Below, one piece after another: positions 3,933 through 36,963 of a stretch of DNA of 41,294 nt. Each line of letters opens with the position of its first letter. The stretch's first letter is position 1. A program made the position numbers and the translations under genes. The notes under the pieces were generated by a model, which worked only from the letters and a program-made list of their open reading frames with translations, was not told the DNA's origin and made no database searches. Origin of the DNA: a virus (taxonomy: Duplodnaviria > Heunggongvirae > Uroviricota > Caudoviricetes); IMG/VR virus record IMGVR_UViG_3300033074_000010, positions 1 through 41,294 of that record. One strand, 5' to 3'.

Positions 3933-5426
3933 ATGGTTTCCGCAAACATTAACGCAGGGCAAGGGCAGAACGTTAAAACGCGCCACCGCCAGTACGAAGA
4001 GTATTTCCCTAAGTGGCAGAAGGTGCGACATGCGCTTTCTGGCGACCTGACATCATATTTACGGGATGTGGGTAAGAATGAGCCGGACCCTGTGTATGGT
4101 CGCCAGCGTCAGGCTGAATACGAAGCGGGGGCAATTTGCTACAACTTCACCAAGCGAACGCTTTCCGGCATGGTCGGCAGCGTAATGCGCAAAGACCCAG
4201 AGATGATTATTCCGTCTCAGATGGAATACCTGACCACTAACTGTGACGGGTCGGGCGTTGGCCTGTGGCAGCACGCGCAGGATACCCTGTATGAGATTGA
4301 TGCTGTCGGTCGCGGCGGCTTGCTGGTGGACGCGCCCGCGGTAGAAGTCGCTACTATGGCGGAGCAAAACGAGGGCTTACTAAACCCTACAATTGCTTTC
4401 TACACTGCTGAGAACATCATTAACTGGCGTCTCCAGCGCGTCGGGTCGGTCAATCGTGTGGTTATGGTTGTATTGCGCGAAGAATACGAGTACACCGACG
4501 GAACTGACGAGTTCAGCCCCAACTACGGCGAACAATACCGCGTCCTTGATATTTTCGAAGGCCAGTATCGCCAGCGTCTGTACCGGTTTAACCAGAAAGG
4601 CGCACTGATGGAAGGAGGTTACATCGAAATCTTCCCGAAACTCGGTAACATCCCGGTCGGGGTGATTCCGTTTACGTTCATTGGGGCCGGGAATAATGAC
4701 TCGACCCCTGACGATGCACCTTTGCTGCCTCTGGCTGAACTTAATATCGGGCATTTCCGCAACAGTGCAGACAATGAGGAGTCCAGCTTCGTTGTAGGTC
4801 AACCCACTCTGTTCATTGCGCCGGGCGAGAATATGAGCATGGAGCAGTGGAAAGAAGCCAACCCTCACGGCGTCCGCATGGGGTCGCGTTCGGGCCATAA
4901 CATCGGTTACGGCGGCAATGCGTTTCTGGTTCAGGCGGAGGAGAACAACCTCGCTAAGCAGAACATGCTGGATAAAGAGAATCAGGCCATCCAGATTGGT
5001 GCGCAGCTTATCACCCCGACGCAGCAAATCACCGCTGAATCCGCCCGCCTGCAACGCGGCGCTGACACGTCCGTTATGGCGACAATTGCGCGTAATGTAA
5101 GCTCTGCGTATACCGATGCGCTGAAATGGGTTGCGGGTATGCTAGGATTGCGTGGAGACACAGAGATTGAGTTCAAGCTGAATATGGAGTTCTTCCTGCA
5201 GCCTATGACCGCCCAGGACCGCGCTCAGTGGATGGCGGACATTAACGCGGGCCTGTTACCTGCTACTGCTTACTACGCAGCGTTGCGTAAGGCGGGTGTA
5301 ACCGACTGGACGGATGAGGACCTTCAGAACGCTATCGAGGATGCGCCACTGCCGTTAGGTGCTGTTGCTCAGGTATCGGGGGAGATTCCGCAGTCGGCGC
5401 AGCAACAGGACACCACTCAGCAGTAA
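3933..5426 (+). CDS. portal protein
   Basis: 497-aa ORF immediately after terminase; RBS AAGAGGA; size and position typical of portal. Confidence 0.7.
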   Translation: MVSANINAGQGQNVKTRHRQYEEYFPKWQKVRHALSGDLTSYLRDVGKNEPDPVYGRQRQAEYEAGAICYNFTKRTLSGMVGSVMRKDPEMIIPSQMEYLTTNCDGSGVGLWQHAQDTLYEIDAVGRGGLLVDAPAVEVATMAEQNEGLLNPTIAFYTAENIINWRLQRVGSVNRVVMVVLREEYEYTDGTDEFSPNYGEQYRVLDIFEGQYRQRLYRFNQKGALMEGGYIEIFPKLGNIPVGVIPFTFIGAGNNDSTPDDAPLLPLAELNIGHFRNSADNEESSFVVGQPTLFIAPGENMSMEQWKEANPHGVRMGSRSGHNIGYGGNAFLVQAEENNLAKQNMLDKENQAIQIGAQLITPTQQITAESARLQRGADTSVMATIARNVSSAYTDALKWVAGMLGLRGDTEIEFKLNMEFFLQPMTAQDRAQWMADINAGLLPATAYYAALRKAGVTDWTDEDLQNAIEDAPLPLGAVAQVSGEIPQSAQQQDTTQQ

Positions 5427-5436
5427 GTTCACCTAT

Positions 5437-5457
5437 AGCCCCGAAAGGGGCTTTCTT
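5437..5457 (+). terminator. terminator-like hairpin
   Basis: Stem AGCCCC/GGGGCT with GAAA loop followed by TTCTT. Confidence 0.5.
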
Positions 5458-5462
5458 ATAGT

Positions 5463-6539
5463 ATGCTATTAACTTTAGCGCCACAGGGTTTATCTATGAG
5501 CTTACTTACATCTCTAATCAGCCACCAGATATGGCTGCAACGCACCGCATCCGGTGAAGTGAAAGGCCTCGCACCGTTCATTAAGGAGATGCGGGACGAA
5601 ATAAAACGGCAGGTTCTGTTATTCGGCGACGACGGGCGAAGCTCGCGCCGACTGAATAAATTGTTACGCGACCTTGAAGAAGCGCTAACCGGACTTACAG
5701 GCGACTGGCAAACAAAGCTGACAGAAGACCTTAAGGAACTGGCGGCGTATGAGGCGGAGTGGAACGTAAAGACGCTGACAGCTAACGTAGACGCGGAATT
5801 TGTCACGCCTACCGCGGAACAGGTGTGGGCCGCTGCCGAGTTTCAACCTCTGTCGCTAAGTGACAAGCCCGTTGACTTCACCAAGCTGATGTCAGGCTGG
5901 GGTGAAGCGGAGGTCGCGCGCCTTGTAACTGGCGTTAAGATGGGCTTTGTGCAAGGCCAAACCACACGGCAGATTGTTAAAGAAGTAGTTGGTAAAGGCG
6001 GCCTGGCTGACGTATCAGAGAAACACGCCGCTACAGTAATCCGCACCGCGCTGTCCCACGTGTCCAACGAAGCCCGTAATGAGACATACCGCCAGAACGA
6101 CGACATCATCGAGAAATACGAATGGGTGTCAACGCTGGACAGCCGCACCAGTACGATTTGCAGAGCCAGAGACGGAATGACGTGGGGAATCGGTAAAGGG
6201 CCAATGCCCCCTGCCCATCCGAACTGCCGGTCGTGCACGGCGCCCGTAATTAGCTCGGAGTTCGACTTCCTCGATAAAGGCGCAAAACGTGCGGCTAAGG
6301 GCGCGGACGGAGGTACTCAGGTAAGTGCGGACACCACCTATTACGAGTTCCTGAAACAACAACCGGCATGGTTTCAGGACCAGGCGCTCGGCCCTGTTCG
6401 CGGTAAGATTTTCCGTAACAGCGGTATATCGCCGGAAGAGTTTCGCGTAATATCTGTAGATGGTTTCGGTAATCCGCTGACGCTTAAGCAGATGGCGGAA
6501 CTCGATAAACGTGTTGCTGATTATCTGAAAGGGGATTAA
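5463..6539 (+). CDS. head morphogenesis / minor head protein (putative)
   Basis: 358-aa ORF after portal, gene-order analogy to SPP1 gp7 / Mu F-like; alternative ATG at 5496. Confidence 0.55.
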   Translation: MLLTLAPQGLSMSLLTSLISHQIWLQRTASGEVKGLAPFIKEMRDEIKRQVLLFGDDGRSSRRLNKLLRDLEEALTGLTGDWQTKLTEDLKELAAYEAEWNVKTLTANVDAEFVTPTAEQVWAAAEFQPLSLSDKPVDFTKLMSGWGEAEVARLVTGVKMGFVQGQTTRQIVKEVVGKGGLADVSEKHAATVIRTALSHVSNEARNETYRQNDDIIEKYEWVSTLDSRTSTICRARDGMTWGIGKGPMPPAHPNCRSCTAPVISSEFDFLDKGAKRAAKGADGGTQVSADTTYYEFLKQQPAWFQDQALGPVRGKIFRNSGISPEEFRVISVDGFGNPLTLKQMAELDKRVADYLKGD

Positions 6540-7000
6540 TGATGGGCTTTTTCAAAGTAACTGATGTGCCGTCGCGTCGCGTAGTCCAGTACGCTCGTGT
6601 GTCTGGCTCCGGTGAGAACGTGGTATTTATTGAAGATGAAAGTGTACTGGGTACACCAGTAGACGATATGCCGTTTGCGGACAAGACTGGTATTGCGCTG
6701 CCTGCGGCAGGTATGCTTTACGAGATTCCGTATCTGGCGGACGCTGGCGACGTGTATTTCTCTGCACAACCACAGGACGTCGAACTGGCAGACGGCAGCG
6801 CCACTATCACTGTCGAGGTTAAGGCGGGCAAAGCACCATACGCGCTGACCTGGTACAAAGACGGTAAGGAAGTGGTAAACGCCCCGGAAGAGGCTTTGTC
6901 TCTGACGGTTAATGCGGTGGGTGAATACTTCGTTAAAGTTACTGATGCCGATGGTGTAGAGGCCGTAAGCAAAGCGGCGAAGGTCACTAAGCCAGAATAA
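6539..7000 (+). CDS. hypothetical structural protein with Ig-like C-terminal region
   Basis: 153-aa ORF; C-terminal segment (ATITVEVKAGKAPYALTWYKDGKEV) resembles Ig-like domains. Confidence 0.4.
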   Translation: MMGFFKVTDVPSRRVVQYARVSGSGENVVFIEDESVLGTPVDDMPFADKTGIALPAAGMLYEIPYLADAGDVYFSAQPQDVELADGSATITVEVKAGKAPYALTWYKDGKEVVNAPEEALSLTVNAVGEYFVKVTDADGVEAVSKAAKVTKPE

Positions 7001-7006
7001 ACTGAA

Positions 7007-7025
7007 GCCCCGAAAGGGGCTTTTT
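7007..7025 (+). terminator. rho-independent terminator
   Basis: Stem GCCCC(7007-7011)/GGGGC(7016-7020), GAAA loop, T5 run. Confidence 0.65.
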
Positions 7026-7089
7026 AGCGCCTGTGACTATTCCAGTTATTCCACCGAATTGTAAATGTTAGAATAAACTATTCGAATAG

Positions 7090-7118
7090 TTGACTTTTCA
7101 CCAAAAATGTGCTAAGCT
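7090..7118 (+). promoter_or_regulatory. sigma70-like promoter (extended -10)
   Basis: TTGACT(7090-7095), 17 nt, TGcTAAGCT(7110-7118); 16-bp perfect palindrome AACTATTCGAATAGTT (7076-7091) overlaps the -35. Confidence 0.55.
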
Positions 7119-7121
7119 CCA

Positions 7122-7230
7122 CCTGAGCTTGTGAAGTATGAACAAGCGACCGCGGCACGGCAGGTAACGGAGCCGGACGTTAAGTCCGAGTGTAGTTACG
7201 CTGACGCGTTCGGAAGGGCCATACTCTATT
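7122..7230 (+). ncRNA. candidate structured RNA / cis-regulatory leader, copy A (family unassigned)
   Basis: No ORF of 60 aa or more; 5' 34 nt identical and 3' ~31 nt near-identical to 36852-36963; conserved hairpin GCTTGT-9nt-ACAAGC. Confidence 0.4.
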
Positions 7231-7297
7231 GCTTGTGTAAAAAGTAACTGGTTTACTGAGATTACGCCGTTTCTATGTTTAAATGATAAGGACTAGC

Positions 7298-7324
7298 GCC
7301 CCGCTTTAAGGCGGGGCTTTACTT
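7298..7324 (+). terminator. terminator-like hairpin (weak U tract)
   Basis: Stem GCCCCGC(7298-7304)/GCGGGGC(7311-7317) followed by TTTACTT. Confidence 0.35.
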
Positions 7325-7341
7325 ATCGAGAAAGGGGAAAC

Positions 7342-7728
7342 ATGAATCTTAAAGCAACTGTCGTAGCAGGAGCATGTTTCATCATCCTGTTATATGTACA
7401 CGGCTACTTTCAATACCGCAGCGGCTGGAACGAAGGCCGGGCGAATCTCGTTTCGCAGCAACAGCAGAAAGCACAGGCTGAGTTAGCGAAGAAAACACAA
7501 CGGCAGCAGCAGGATGAATCAAAGGCCGCGGCCGCCGACAGCGAAGGCAAGACGAAATCAGAGGTGATTACCCGTGAAGTCGTTAAGTACATTAAAACAC
7601 CTGGTCGCAGCGTGTGCACTTTCGACGATGCTCGCGTCCTGCTCAAGTCCCGCGCCGTCGCAAACGCCAATTCCATCCCCGGATACGACGATGATGCAGC
7701 CACCGTGCAAGCTGGCACCACCAAGTAG
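7342..7728 (+). CDS. i-spanin (Rz-like), putative
   Basis: N-terminal TM helix then charged coiled-coil-like region; contains embedded +1-frame lipoprotein ORF. Confidence 0.55.
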   Translation: MNLKATVVAGACFIILLYVHGYFQYRSGWNEGRANLVSQQQQKAQAELAKKTQRQQQDESKAAAADSEGKTKSEVITREVVKYIKTPGRSVCTFDDARVLLKSRAVANANSIPGYDDDAATVQAGTTK

Positions 7729-7837
7729 CGATGCTGACGAGGATTTAGCTATCGACGTTCAGAACGCCGAATGCGTACGGCAACTGAGACTGAAAGTGTT
7801 CATGTTGCAGGATTACGTGCGGAATATTCTGGAATAG
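7574..7837 (+). CDS. o-spanin (Rz1-like lipoprotein), putative
   Basis: GTG start after GAGGTGA; lipobox LASC; Pro-rich mature region with MMQPP; overlaps the Rz-like ORF in another frame and extends past it. Confidence 0.55.
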   Translation: MKSLSTLKHLVAACALSTMLASCSSPAPSQTPIPSPDTTMMQPPCKLAPPSSDADEDLAIDVQNAECVRQLRLKVFMLQDYVRNILE

Positions 7838-7916
7838 TTGCCTTGTGTGTTGGAATAATTTATTCTTGACATGTAAATCCGGGAGGCCCGGATTCCAACG
7901 TCCAGGGGACATACTG

Positions 7917-33550: not shown

Positions 33551-33579
33551 ACTATAATAGTGAACTATTCACTTGTCAA
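33551..33579 (-). promoter_or_regulatory. sigma70-like promoter with conserved box (site 4)
   Basis: Read on - strand: TTGACA (33574-33579), 17 nt, TATAGT (33551-33556); palindrome AATAGTGAACTATT 33556-33569; divergent from the Cro-like gene. Confidence 0.6.
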
Positions 33580-33643: not shown

Positions 33644-33859
33644 ATGCAACCATCTGAACTAGGCATCCGTGTAGAGCAACGCCGTAAAGAACTCGGCATC
33701 TCCCAGCGCCGTCTGGCTGTCCTGACCGGCGTTTCTCAGGGCGCGATTAACCAACTGGCACTCGGCGTAACTCAGGACGTCCGCCCTGCAACGCTGTTTA
33801 AACTGGCGGAAGTGCTGGAAGTAGACGCCAAGTGGCTGGCGTTAGGTGAAGGGGCTTAA
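33644..33859 (+). CDS. HTH transcriptional regulator, XRE/Cro-like
   Basis: 71 aa; HTH ISQRRLAVLTGVSQGAINQL; strong RBS AAGGAG (33630-33635). Confidence 0.75.
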   Translation: MQPSELGIRVEQRRKELGISQRRLAVLTGVSQGAINQLALGVTQDVRPATLFKLAEVLEVDAKWLALGEGA

Positions 33860-36313: not shown

Positions 36314-36547
36314 CTAGCGTTGGGGTTTCTTTTGTCTACGCACCGCATTAACCCACTCCCCTTCGCTACGGTAAAAACTGCAATCAAGGATATCCTCTAT
36401 AGAAAATTTAACTATTTTAGTGGGTCCACAAAAGTTATAAGGGAAAAGTTCTACATAACACCCATCGTCGGTTATATTTGACGCAATCTTGAAATAATAT
36501 TTAATGCTGCCGTCTTCGCGGAAGCTACAACCCATACGCCCAATCAT
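36314..36547 (-). CDS. hypothetical protein (77 aa), AT-rich
   Basis: ORF track; start overlaps stop of AlpA-like gene. Confidence 0.45.
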   Translation of the reverse strand: MIGRMGCSFREDGSIKYYFKIASNITDDGCYVELFPYNFCGPTKIVKFSIEDILDCSFYRSEGEWVNAVRRQKKPQR

Positions 36548-36714
36548 TTCACGTTCTCCTTAATCCACGCTTCAACTTTATTACGGTCGAATGTTCCCGG
36601 CATCCGGCGACCCATTACTTTAACGCCGCAATCTGGAAACTTTCCACTCTTAATCCAGTTATTAATTGTCTGGCGGGTGACACCGATTAATTCTGCAACT
36701 TCATTGATAGTCAT
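36544..36714 (-). CDS. AlpA-like HTH DNA-binding protein
   Basis: MTINEVAELIGVTRQTINNWIKSGKFP matches AlpA/MerR-like phage regulator pattern; ATG 36714 after AGGAGA (track ORF extends to 36804). Confidence 0.65.
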   Translation of the reverse strand: MTINEVAELIGVTRQTINNWIKSGKFPDCGVKVMGRRMPGTFDRNKVEAWIKENVK

Positions 36715-36819: not shown

Positions 36820-36848
36820 TTGACTTTTACTGAGAAATATGGTAAGCT
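36820..36848 (+). promoter_or_regulatory. sigma70-like promoter (extended -10)
   Basis: TTGACT (36820-36825), 17 nt, TGgTAAGCT (36840-36848); same hexamers as promoter at 7090-7118. Confidence 0.55.
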
Positions 36849-36851
36849 CGT

Positions 36852-36963
36852 CCTGAGCTTGTGAAGTATGAACAAGCGACCGCGGTGCGCGGCAGGCGAA
36901 ACGAGCACGTCTCGACGTGTGGAGTGAGCCTCGCTGACGCATTCGGAAGGGCCATAGTCTATT
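36852..36963 (+). ncRNA. candidate structured RNA / cis-regulatory leader, copy B (family unassigned)
   Basis: Paralogue of 7122-7230; no ORF of 60 aa or more on + strand; identical 5' 34 nt and near-identical 3' block. Confidence 0.4.

Follow-up and report, generated by a model that had tools for sequence, protein, structure and literature searches.

Genomic context of the locus

The window, that is the whole stretch of 41,294 nucleotides analysed here, is an essentially complete Kagunavirus (Guernseyvirinae) genome. The phage is virulent and carries no lysogeny module. Over the 1.5 kb tested (6500 to 8000), the sequence is 92-94% identical to E. coli K1-type siphophages, e.g. K1H and BUCT789. 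In this region, a promoter that drives copy A of a structured RNA is placed between the terminator of a Hoc-like gene and the spanin, scaffold and capsid genes. The terminator is a hairpin (7005-7022) at the 3' end of the upstream gene, which encodes a Hoc-like head decoration protein. A second hairpin, G+C-rich and followed by a weak T-run, lies on the plus strand between the structured RNA and the spanin gene (7298-7317), and its stem is retained in SETP3 through compensatory changes.

Many relatives, including fBC-Eco01 and K1H, bear two small leftward genes with their own box-type promoter. These genes are located between the Hoc-gene terminator and a pair of TATTCC repeats, a place corresponding to 7023-7037, and they are missing in the window; this insertion was compared against positions 620-1190 of one relative's contig. 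The copy A intergenic block can also be mosaic. In the Salmonella Jerseyvirus FSL SP-101 (positions 4151-4500) the block is of the Kagunavirus type, with 94% identity, while the flanking proteins and both helix-turn-helix (HTH) regulators are of the SETP3 type.

The copy A promoter

The copy A promoter consists of a -35 hexamer TTGACT (7090-7095, plus strand), a 17-nt spacer and an extended -10 element TGcTAAGCT (7110-7118, plus strand), in which TG occupies 7110-7111 and TAAGCT 7113-7118. The -35 matches the consensus at five of six positions; TAAGCT matches TATAAT at three of six, too few for a simple promoter scan to pick it up. Across 34 genomes, nucleotide diversity is 0.01 in the -35 and 0 in both the TG and the -10, while the base between TG and -10 is highly variable (0.49) and parts of the spacer vary freely. 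The elements expected of a sigma-70 extended -10 promoter are thus all present, namely a -35-like hexamer, a spacer of 17 +/- 1, TGn, TAnnnT and conservation of these elements. SETP3-type Jerseyviruses have TAGACT-17-TGtTACGCT at the same place. In fBC-Eco01, TTGACT...TAAGCT carries a host promoter prediction in the GenBank record. The copy A promoter is real, and its conservation pattern is typical of a functional promoter. The region upstream of it is A+T-rich, without long tracts in this phage; in the SETP3 type, CAAAAAG occupies about -42 to -36.

Two other features were considered in this region and rejected. A divergent leftward promoter, TTTACA-18-AATAGT, might have explained the conserved bases at 7036-7066; its -10 coincides with positions that differ from one relative to the next, and the leftward genes, where relatives have them, use their own box-type promoter further left. 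A conserved small ORF in the copy A transcript was discarded as well, its ATG being missing in the SETP3 type.

A perfect 16-bp palindrome overlaps the -35

Immediately upstream of the promoter lies the perfect palindrome AACTATTCGAATAGTT (7076-7091), which cannot be extended. Its last two bases at the 3' end are the first two of TTGACT (7090-7095). Both the palindrome and its overlap with the -35, as reported in the initial annotation, are therefore present, the overlap being 2 bp. If transcription starts near 7125, the palindrome spans about -49 to -34. Its centre falls between 7083 and 7084, which is -41.5 only if the start is 7125, a start placed from the position of the -10.

The palindrome is the sole one in the window that is perfect and has arms of at least 8. 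Dinucleotide shuffles gave 0.8 such palindromes per genome, and at least one in 55% of the shuffles, so that the count by itself is not significant; for the non-coding DNA alone, some 3.9 kb, about 0.05 would be expected. A role as RNA hairpin or terminator was rejected on inspection only: there are no loop bases, and the stem would be short and A+U-rich.

Conservation of the palindrome

The motif comparison with relatives suggested by the initial annotation gave a divided answer. On the one hand, 30 of the 35 contigs of Kagunavirus type carry the palindrome unchanged, and in an alignment of 34 genomes of this type its nucleotide diversity is 0.022, with 0.015 in the left arm and 0.029 in the right. 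The value for the whole palindrome is about 10 times below the third codon positions of the two flanking genes, where diversity is 0.17-0.32; at first and second positions it is 0.06-0.085. Neutral sites within the copy A block, such as 7112, are saturated (0.49 at that position), and the low diversity of the palindrome therefore reflects selection rather than recent common ancestry. The palindrome sequence is under purifying selection.

On the other hand, the symmetry is not kept. All five palindrome variants are one-sided changes that break it. It is also missing in SETP3-type phages, which keep the same early box (described below): their homologous 16 bp, CTTTATTCAAAAAGTA, has three of eight symmetric pairs left. 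The SETP3 type still retains the flanking TATTCC-AGT-TATTCC, TGTAAAT, GGAATA and TATTC. A third haplotype, which might have shown compensatory changes, was sought in IMG/VR and a phage collection, and two haplotypes plus single-base variants were the only forms encountered. Among the 35 Kagunavirus-type contigs and the SETP3-type lineage, no evidence was found for selection on symmetry itself.

The early box and the box-like site at 7084-7099

The pentamers of the palindrome also occur in a 14-bp box, AATAG-N4-CTATT, that recurs at early promoters. The window contains six exact and five one-mismatch copies of this early box, against 0.98 expected, and words resembling GAATAGTTGACT are enriched as well (7 against 2.7 expected). 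All six exact copies, at 33556-33569 and at 15450, 27896, 31455, 37135 and 38131, have a 4-bp spacer and 14 bp in total; one-mismatch copies are found at promoters at 192 and 33600. The box takes up three registers. In TTGACA-17-TATAGT promoters it lies within the spacer and the -10, in TTGCAC-17-TACTAT promoters it lies over the -10, and in the promoter at 196-224 over the -35. Such variable placement indicates that the box is a protein site in its own right rather than an element read by RNA polymerase. It is conserved in SETP3.

Two copies with one mismatch deserve mention in their own right. A promoter TTGACT-17-TATATT (192-224), upstream of the first ORF of a rightward cluster running into the terminase genes, carries ACTAG-TTGA-CTATT over its -35; in the SETP3 counterpart, the mismatch is in the other half-site (AATAG-TTGA-CTAGT). 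Another copy, TATAGTATGCTATT (5457-5470), lies directly 3' of a terminator hairpin and over the start of a head morphogenesis ORF, and is conserved in K1H.

The same motif family has been noticed in other phages. In the Kagunavirus fBC-Eco01, a repeated 'phage promoter' motif tgAATAGTa-ccTATTat-T was read as a promoter for a phage polymerase (PMC9825357), and in phage Golestan seven PHIRE motifs were treated as promoters of a phage RNA polymerase (PMC7203180). These motifs belong to the box family of the six exact copies in the window. No phage RNA polymerase is annotated in the K1H or SETP3 records. The palindrome is mentioned in neither PMC9825357 nor PMC7203180, and the string 'palindrom' does not occur in the Golestan paper. 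A full-text literature search for CTATTCGAATAG returned no paper, and none mentioning the palindrome was found.

Compared with this box family, the palindrome shares the overlap with a core promoter element (2 bp of the -35) and differs in the rest. The initial annotation had described CTATT/AATAG half-sites without a central spacer. The pentamers are indeed those of the early box, but this description needs correction, since the palindrome reads CTATT-CG-AATAG, with two bases between the pentamers, whereas the box reads AATAG-N4-CTATT. The order of the half-sites is thus swapped and the N4 spacing is replaced by 2 bp.

The arrangement that does resemble the box is a degenerate site, GAATAG-TTGA-CTTTTC (7084-7099), made of the right arm of the palindrome and the -35 hexamer, which it covers entirely. 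It matches GAATAG-N4-CTATTC at 11 of 12 positions, and its inner part (7085-7098) has one mismatch to AATAG-N4-CTATT, with TTGA as N4 and the pentamers in the head-to-head order. Its register is that of ACTAG-TTGA-CTATT at 192-205, over the -35. With a weight matrix trained only on relatives, the site ranks 10th in the window, and the nine higher-scoring sites are all in intergenic contexts of promoter type. Its score of 9.9 bits is weak, 0.7 equally good sites being expected per shuffled genome. SETP3 and Jersey have a one-mismatch box at the copy A promoter with the register shifted by 3 bp, which means that the putative operator is not strictly homologous between the lineages.

Two clusters of GAATA/TATTC motifs

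The palindrome is also part of a cluster of GAATA and TATTC motifs. A GAATA-N3-TATTC dyad, GAATA-AAC-TATTC (7071-7083), contributes its right half as the left arm of the palindrome; the arms of this dyad are kept in both lineages, and its spacer is CTT in SETP3. The distal part of the cluster is a direct repeat, TATTCC-AGT-TATTCC (7038-7052), conserved in both lineages, and a conserved TGTAAAT block (7060-7066) separates the two groups of motifs.

A density of five GAATA/TATTC motifs per 60 bp is reached at two places only, 7038-7089 and 7821-7866. Both clusters are conserved in K1H; the second is also conserved in SETP3, where the first keeps four motifs. The second cluster, located 750 bp downstream of the palindrome, reads GGAATATTC-TG-GAATAG-TTGCCT, followed by a 17-nt spacer and TATTCT; its TATTC-TG-GAATAG abuts TTGCCT on the plus strand (7825-7843). 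It overlaps the end of the o-spanin gene, the last five codons of which are invariant even at third positions. This invariance within 7821-7866 indicates a regulatory site overlapping the coding sequence. The second cluster resembles the palindrome region, and TATTC-(0 or 2 bp)-GAATAG abutting a -35 is thereby found twice. TTGCCT (7838-7843) and TATTCT (7861-7866), 17 nt apart, form a putative promoter ahead of the scaffold and capsid genes, with a promoter-like conservation pattern.

Copy B and the two-copy structured RNA

The genome has a second promoter with the same core as copy A. The copy B promoter, TTGACT-17-TGgTAAGCT (36820-36848, plus strand), has neither the palindrome nor upstream GAATA motifs, and relatives differ from one another in the bases directly before its -35. 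An operator at copy B was ruled out, the upstream TACTAGTA not being conserved among relatives. The lack of motifs at copy B and the variability there indicate that the GAATA/TATTC cluster is a control specific to copy A.

Each of these promoters is directly followed by a structured RNA of about 100 nt, copy A at 7125-7224 (plus strand) and copy B at 36855-36957, behind the shared TTGACT-17-TGnTAAGCT. Copy A comprises a 5' hairpin, a long bulged hairpin and a conserved, single-stranded AAGGGCC tail, and four sequence variants fold alike into the 5' hairpin and then the long bulged hairpin. The long hairpin is closed by CCG.GGYGC/GCRUUCGG, and its closing helix covaries (U-A, C-G, A-U). Rfam gave no match at gathering thresholds over the whole window, and noise only at E-values up to 10 over 7000-7345; ARAGORN found no tRNA. 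A tRNA-Ser annotated in phage wast is unrelated, being on the opposite strand over the end of an upstream putative tail protein gene. SETP3-type phages have copy A of the structured RNA only, and one Jersey strain has an internal deletion in it. The RNA is a possible put/nut-like antiterminator or regulatory leader. This promoter-driven, two-copy structured RNA is a more unusual object than the palindrome.

A further small transcription unit was observed at 75-180 and is conserved in K1H and SETP3. It has a TTGACA-17-GATACT promoter and about 70 nt of C/U-rich sequence (CACCTCCT, CATCCCTCT), and ends in a strong terminator with a run of eight T (148-178). The unit is a small RNA candidate, parts of which resemble the anti-Shine-Dalgarno sequence.

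Candidate regulators

Two genes encode candidate regulators. The first (33644-33859, plus strand) is flanked by two early boxes and encodes a 71-aa HTH_3 protein (XRE/434-Cro-like), the candidate ligand of the box. Among proteins of solved structure, its best relatives are 434 Cro and the 434 repressor. A homologue is one of four early genes in an RNA-seq study of phage K1B4 (PMC12645636). The second (36544-36714, minus strand) encodes a 56-aa HTH_17 protein (excisionase/MerR-like).

Covariation between the palindrome allele and the alleles of these regulators was ruled out by FSL SP-101, which has the perfect palindrome, yet an HTH_3 protein identical to that of SETP3 and an HTH_17 protein of the SETP3 type. 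The palindrome allele therefore follows the allele of neither regulator, which would agree with a ligand of a specificity that the two lineages share, as they share the box, or with no specific ligand at all. Moreover, a 434-Cro-like dimer could not read the palindrome as a box, because the half-sites are swapped and closer than in the 14-bp box.

Comparison with known systems

The operators of 434 Cro and the 434 repressor are 14-bp dyads of 5-4-5 geometry that overlap early promoters. The early box has the same 5-4-5 geometry and length, overlaps core promoter elements and surrounds a 434-Cro-like gene, and the predicted site at 7084-7099 fits this geometry with one mismatch. The palindrome differs in its swapped half-sites with only CG between the pentamers, and the phage differs in being virulent and without a lysogeny module.

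Class II activator sites, such as those of CRP and FNR, are another possible model. As in these sites, the dyad would be centred at about -41.5 and overlaps the -35, the start being placed from the -10. Unlike them, the copy A promoter has a near-consensus -35 and an extended -10, not the poor -35 that goes with activator dependence, and copy B has the same core without the dyad. The palindrome is also unlike what we take to be the CRP and FNR consensus sites. A likeness to lambda nut and HK022 put, where a structured RNA is present twice, each time close behind the promoter of a long operon, concerns the transcript and not the palindrome: the two-hairpin RNA exists in two copies here, and the one transcribed from this promoter precedes a hairpin and a long operon, but there is no sequence or Rfam match. 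The palindrome is probably an uncharacterised example of a familiar class, the promoter-proximal operator-like dyads of phages, and thus an ordinary type of element.

Possible roles of the palindrome

Several readings of the palindrome were weighed. It could itself be the operator of a dimeric regulator, either another protein or another binding mode, acting from about -41.5 as a class-II-type activator or as a repressor, and acting on the scaffold/capsid promoter through TATTC-TG-GAATAG. The perfect symmetry, the constraint on both arms and a centre at -41.5, if the start is indeed at 7125, are what such an operator would display. A comparable inverted repeat, without variation even at synonymous sites, lies directly against the -35 of the putative promoter at 7838-7866, whose weak core hexamers could need activation. 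The spacing differs between the two copies, however (0 against 2 bp), and no relative shows a compensatory change preserving symmetry; in the SETP3 type, with its three of eight pairs, the region is conserved nonetheless. Activation also seems unnecessary at copy A, because its core is near consensus (TTGACT plus TG) and its twin, copy B, does without the site. As the palindrome allele, in addition, co-varies with neither HTH regulator, we regard a dimeric operator as rather unlikely.

In the SETP3-type haplotype the symmetry is missing and an A-tract takes up this position, as would be expected if no dedicated regulator existed, the A+T-rich DNA acting as an UP-like or DNA-shape element that tunes RNA polymerase and the palindrome being a chance feature fixed in one haplotype. 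About 0.8 perfect 16-mer palindromes are expected per genome, and the whole block 7038-7341 is of low diversity and moves between lineages as a unit. Yet the diversity of the palindrome is as low as that of the -35 and -10 hexamers, which is stricter than usual for UP elements, the non-coding expectation is only 0.05, the pentamer cluster recurs at a second promoter, and the half-site is common to a clearly non-random box family. The absence of a dedicated regulator appears distinctly improbable. That box family also bears on the idea that the ligand of the palindrome site is a protein of the host, either a transcription factor or a nucleoid protein, that E. coli and Salmonella share. One and the same block serves phages of either host, alongside differing alleles of the phage regulators, as a host ligand would allow, but the half-site belongs also to the phage-specific box surrounding the phage HTH gene. 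In addition, the sites that we presume to be the consensus for ArgR, CRP, IHF, TrpR and DnaA do not fit the palindrome region, where GAAT-N5-ATTC stands against the N4 that we take to be typical of ARG boxes. A host ligand is very unlikely in our opinion.

The reading that we prefer, tentatively and with a little more doubt than confidence, is that the palindrome is the promoter-proximal end of a copy A-specific GAATA/TATTC regulatory array (7038-7099), bound by a phage HTH protein and lowering transcription. The sequence, promoter architecture, conservation, motif relationships and presence of candidate regulators are observed, as described above; that a protein binds here, which protein it is and in which direction it regulates are inferences. 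The cluster 7038-7099 would be a protein-binding control region on a host sigma-70 extended -10 promoter, from which transcription would run through the structured leader RNA into the spanin, scaffold and capsid genes. The perfect 16-mer would consist of two adjacent elements, a left arm that is half of GAATA-N3-TATTC and a right arm that forms the degenerate box with the -35, and would arise because this box-like site abuts the TATTC half of the neighbouring dyad. The ligand would be a phage HTH protein reading GAATAG, the best candidate being the early 71-aa 434-Cro-like protein. When bound to GAATAG-TTGA-CTTTTC, such a protein would lie over the -35, with less transcription of copy A and of the genes that follow as the result, while copy B, with the same core and without such sites, would stay unregulated. 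The array is probably repressive: by its sequence the core promoter looks strong, and its twin at copy B has no such site, both of which speak more for repression than for activation.

The constrained arms of the palindrome, the non-random early box family, the motif cluster seen twice, the contrast with copy B and the box-flanked regulator gene all count for this array. Against it stands the weak score of the site at 7085 (9.9 bits, 0.7 expected per shuffled genome). The exact mirroring of the left arm by the right arm is left unexplained by the model, and the timing is awkward, as a repressor made early would also shut a promoter of structural genes.

The initial annotation had suggested that the palindrome could be an operator through which the regulator of the early box represses the promoter. 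This idea is partly supported. The overlap with the -35, the purifying selection, the shared GAATAG/CTATTC half-site and the absence of the palindrome at copy B all agree with it, but the geometry of the palindrome is wrong for box-like binding. The likely ligand of the box could not bind the palindrome itself as it does the box, the half-sites being swapped and closer; the box-like site is the overlapping 7084-7099, with its weak score.

It is also conceivable, though we would give it little credence, that the Cro-like protein reads GAATAG in two ways. Head-to-head early boxes would mediate repression, and tail-to-tail dyads near -42 (7076-7091 and 7825-7837) would activate or time the promoters of the structural region.

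Significance

The use of Kagunavirus and Jerseyvirus phages in therapy and food safety is widely suggested. To our knowledge, nothing is known experimentally about expression timing by the host polymerase alone in these phages. The present analysis offers a regulatory map for them, comprising a 14-bp box at at least nine promoters, a candidate Cro-like ligand, and two GAATA/TATTC clusters at promoters of the structural region. Copy B provides a natural control, as it has the same core promoter without the cluster sites. If GAATAG were indeed read in two arrangements, this would amount to an early-to-late switch in a virulent siphophage that has no RNA polymerase of its own, and it would be linked to a new structured RNA with two copies, possibly a put/nut-like antiterminator.
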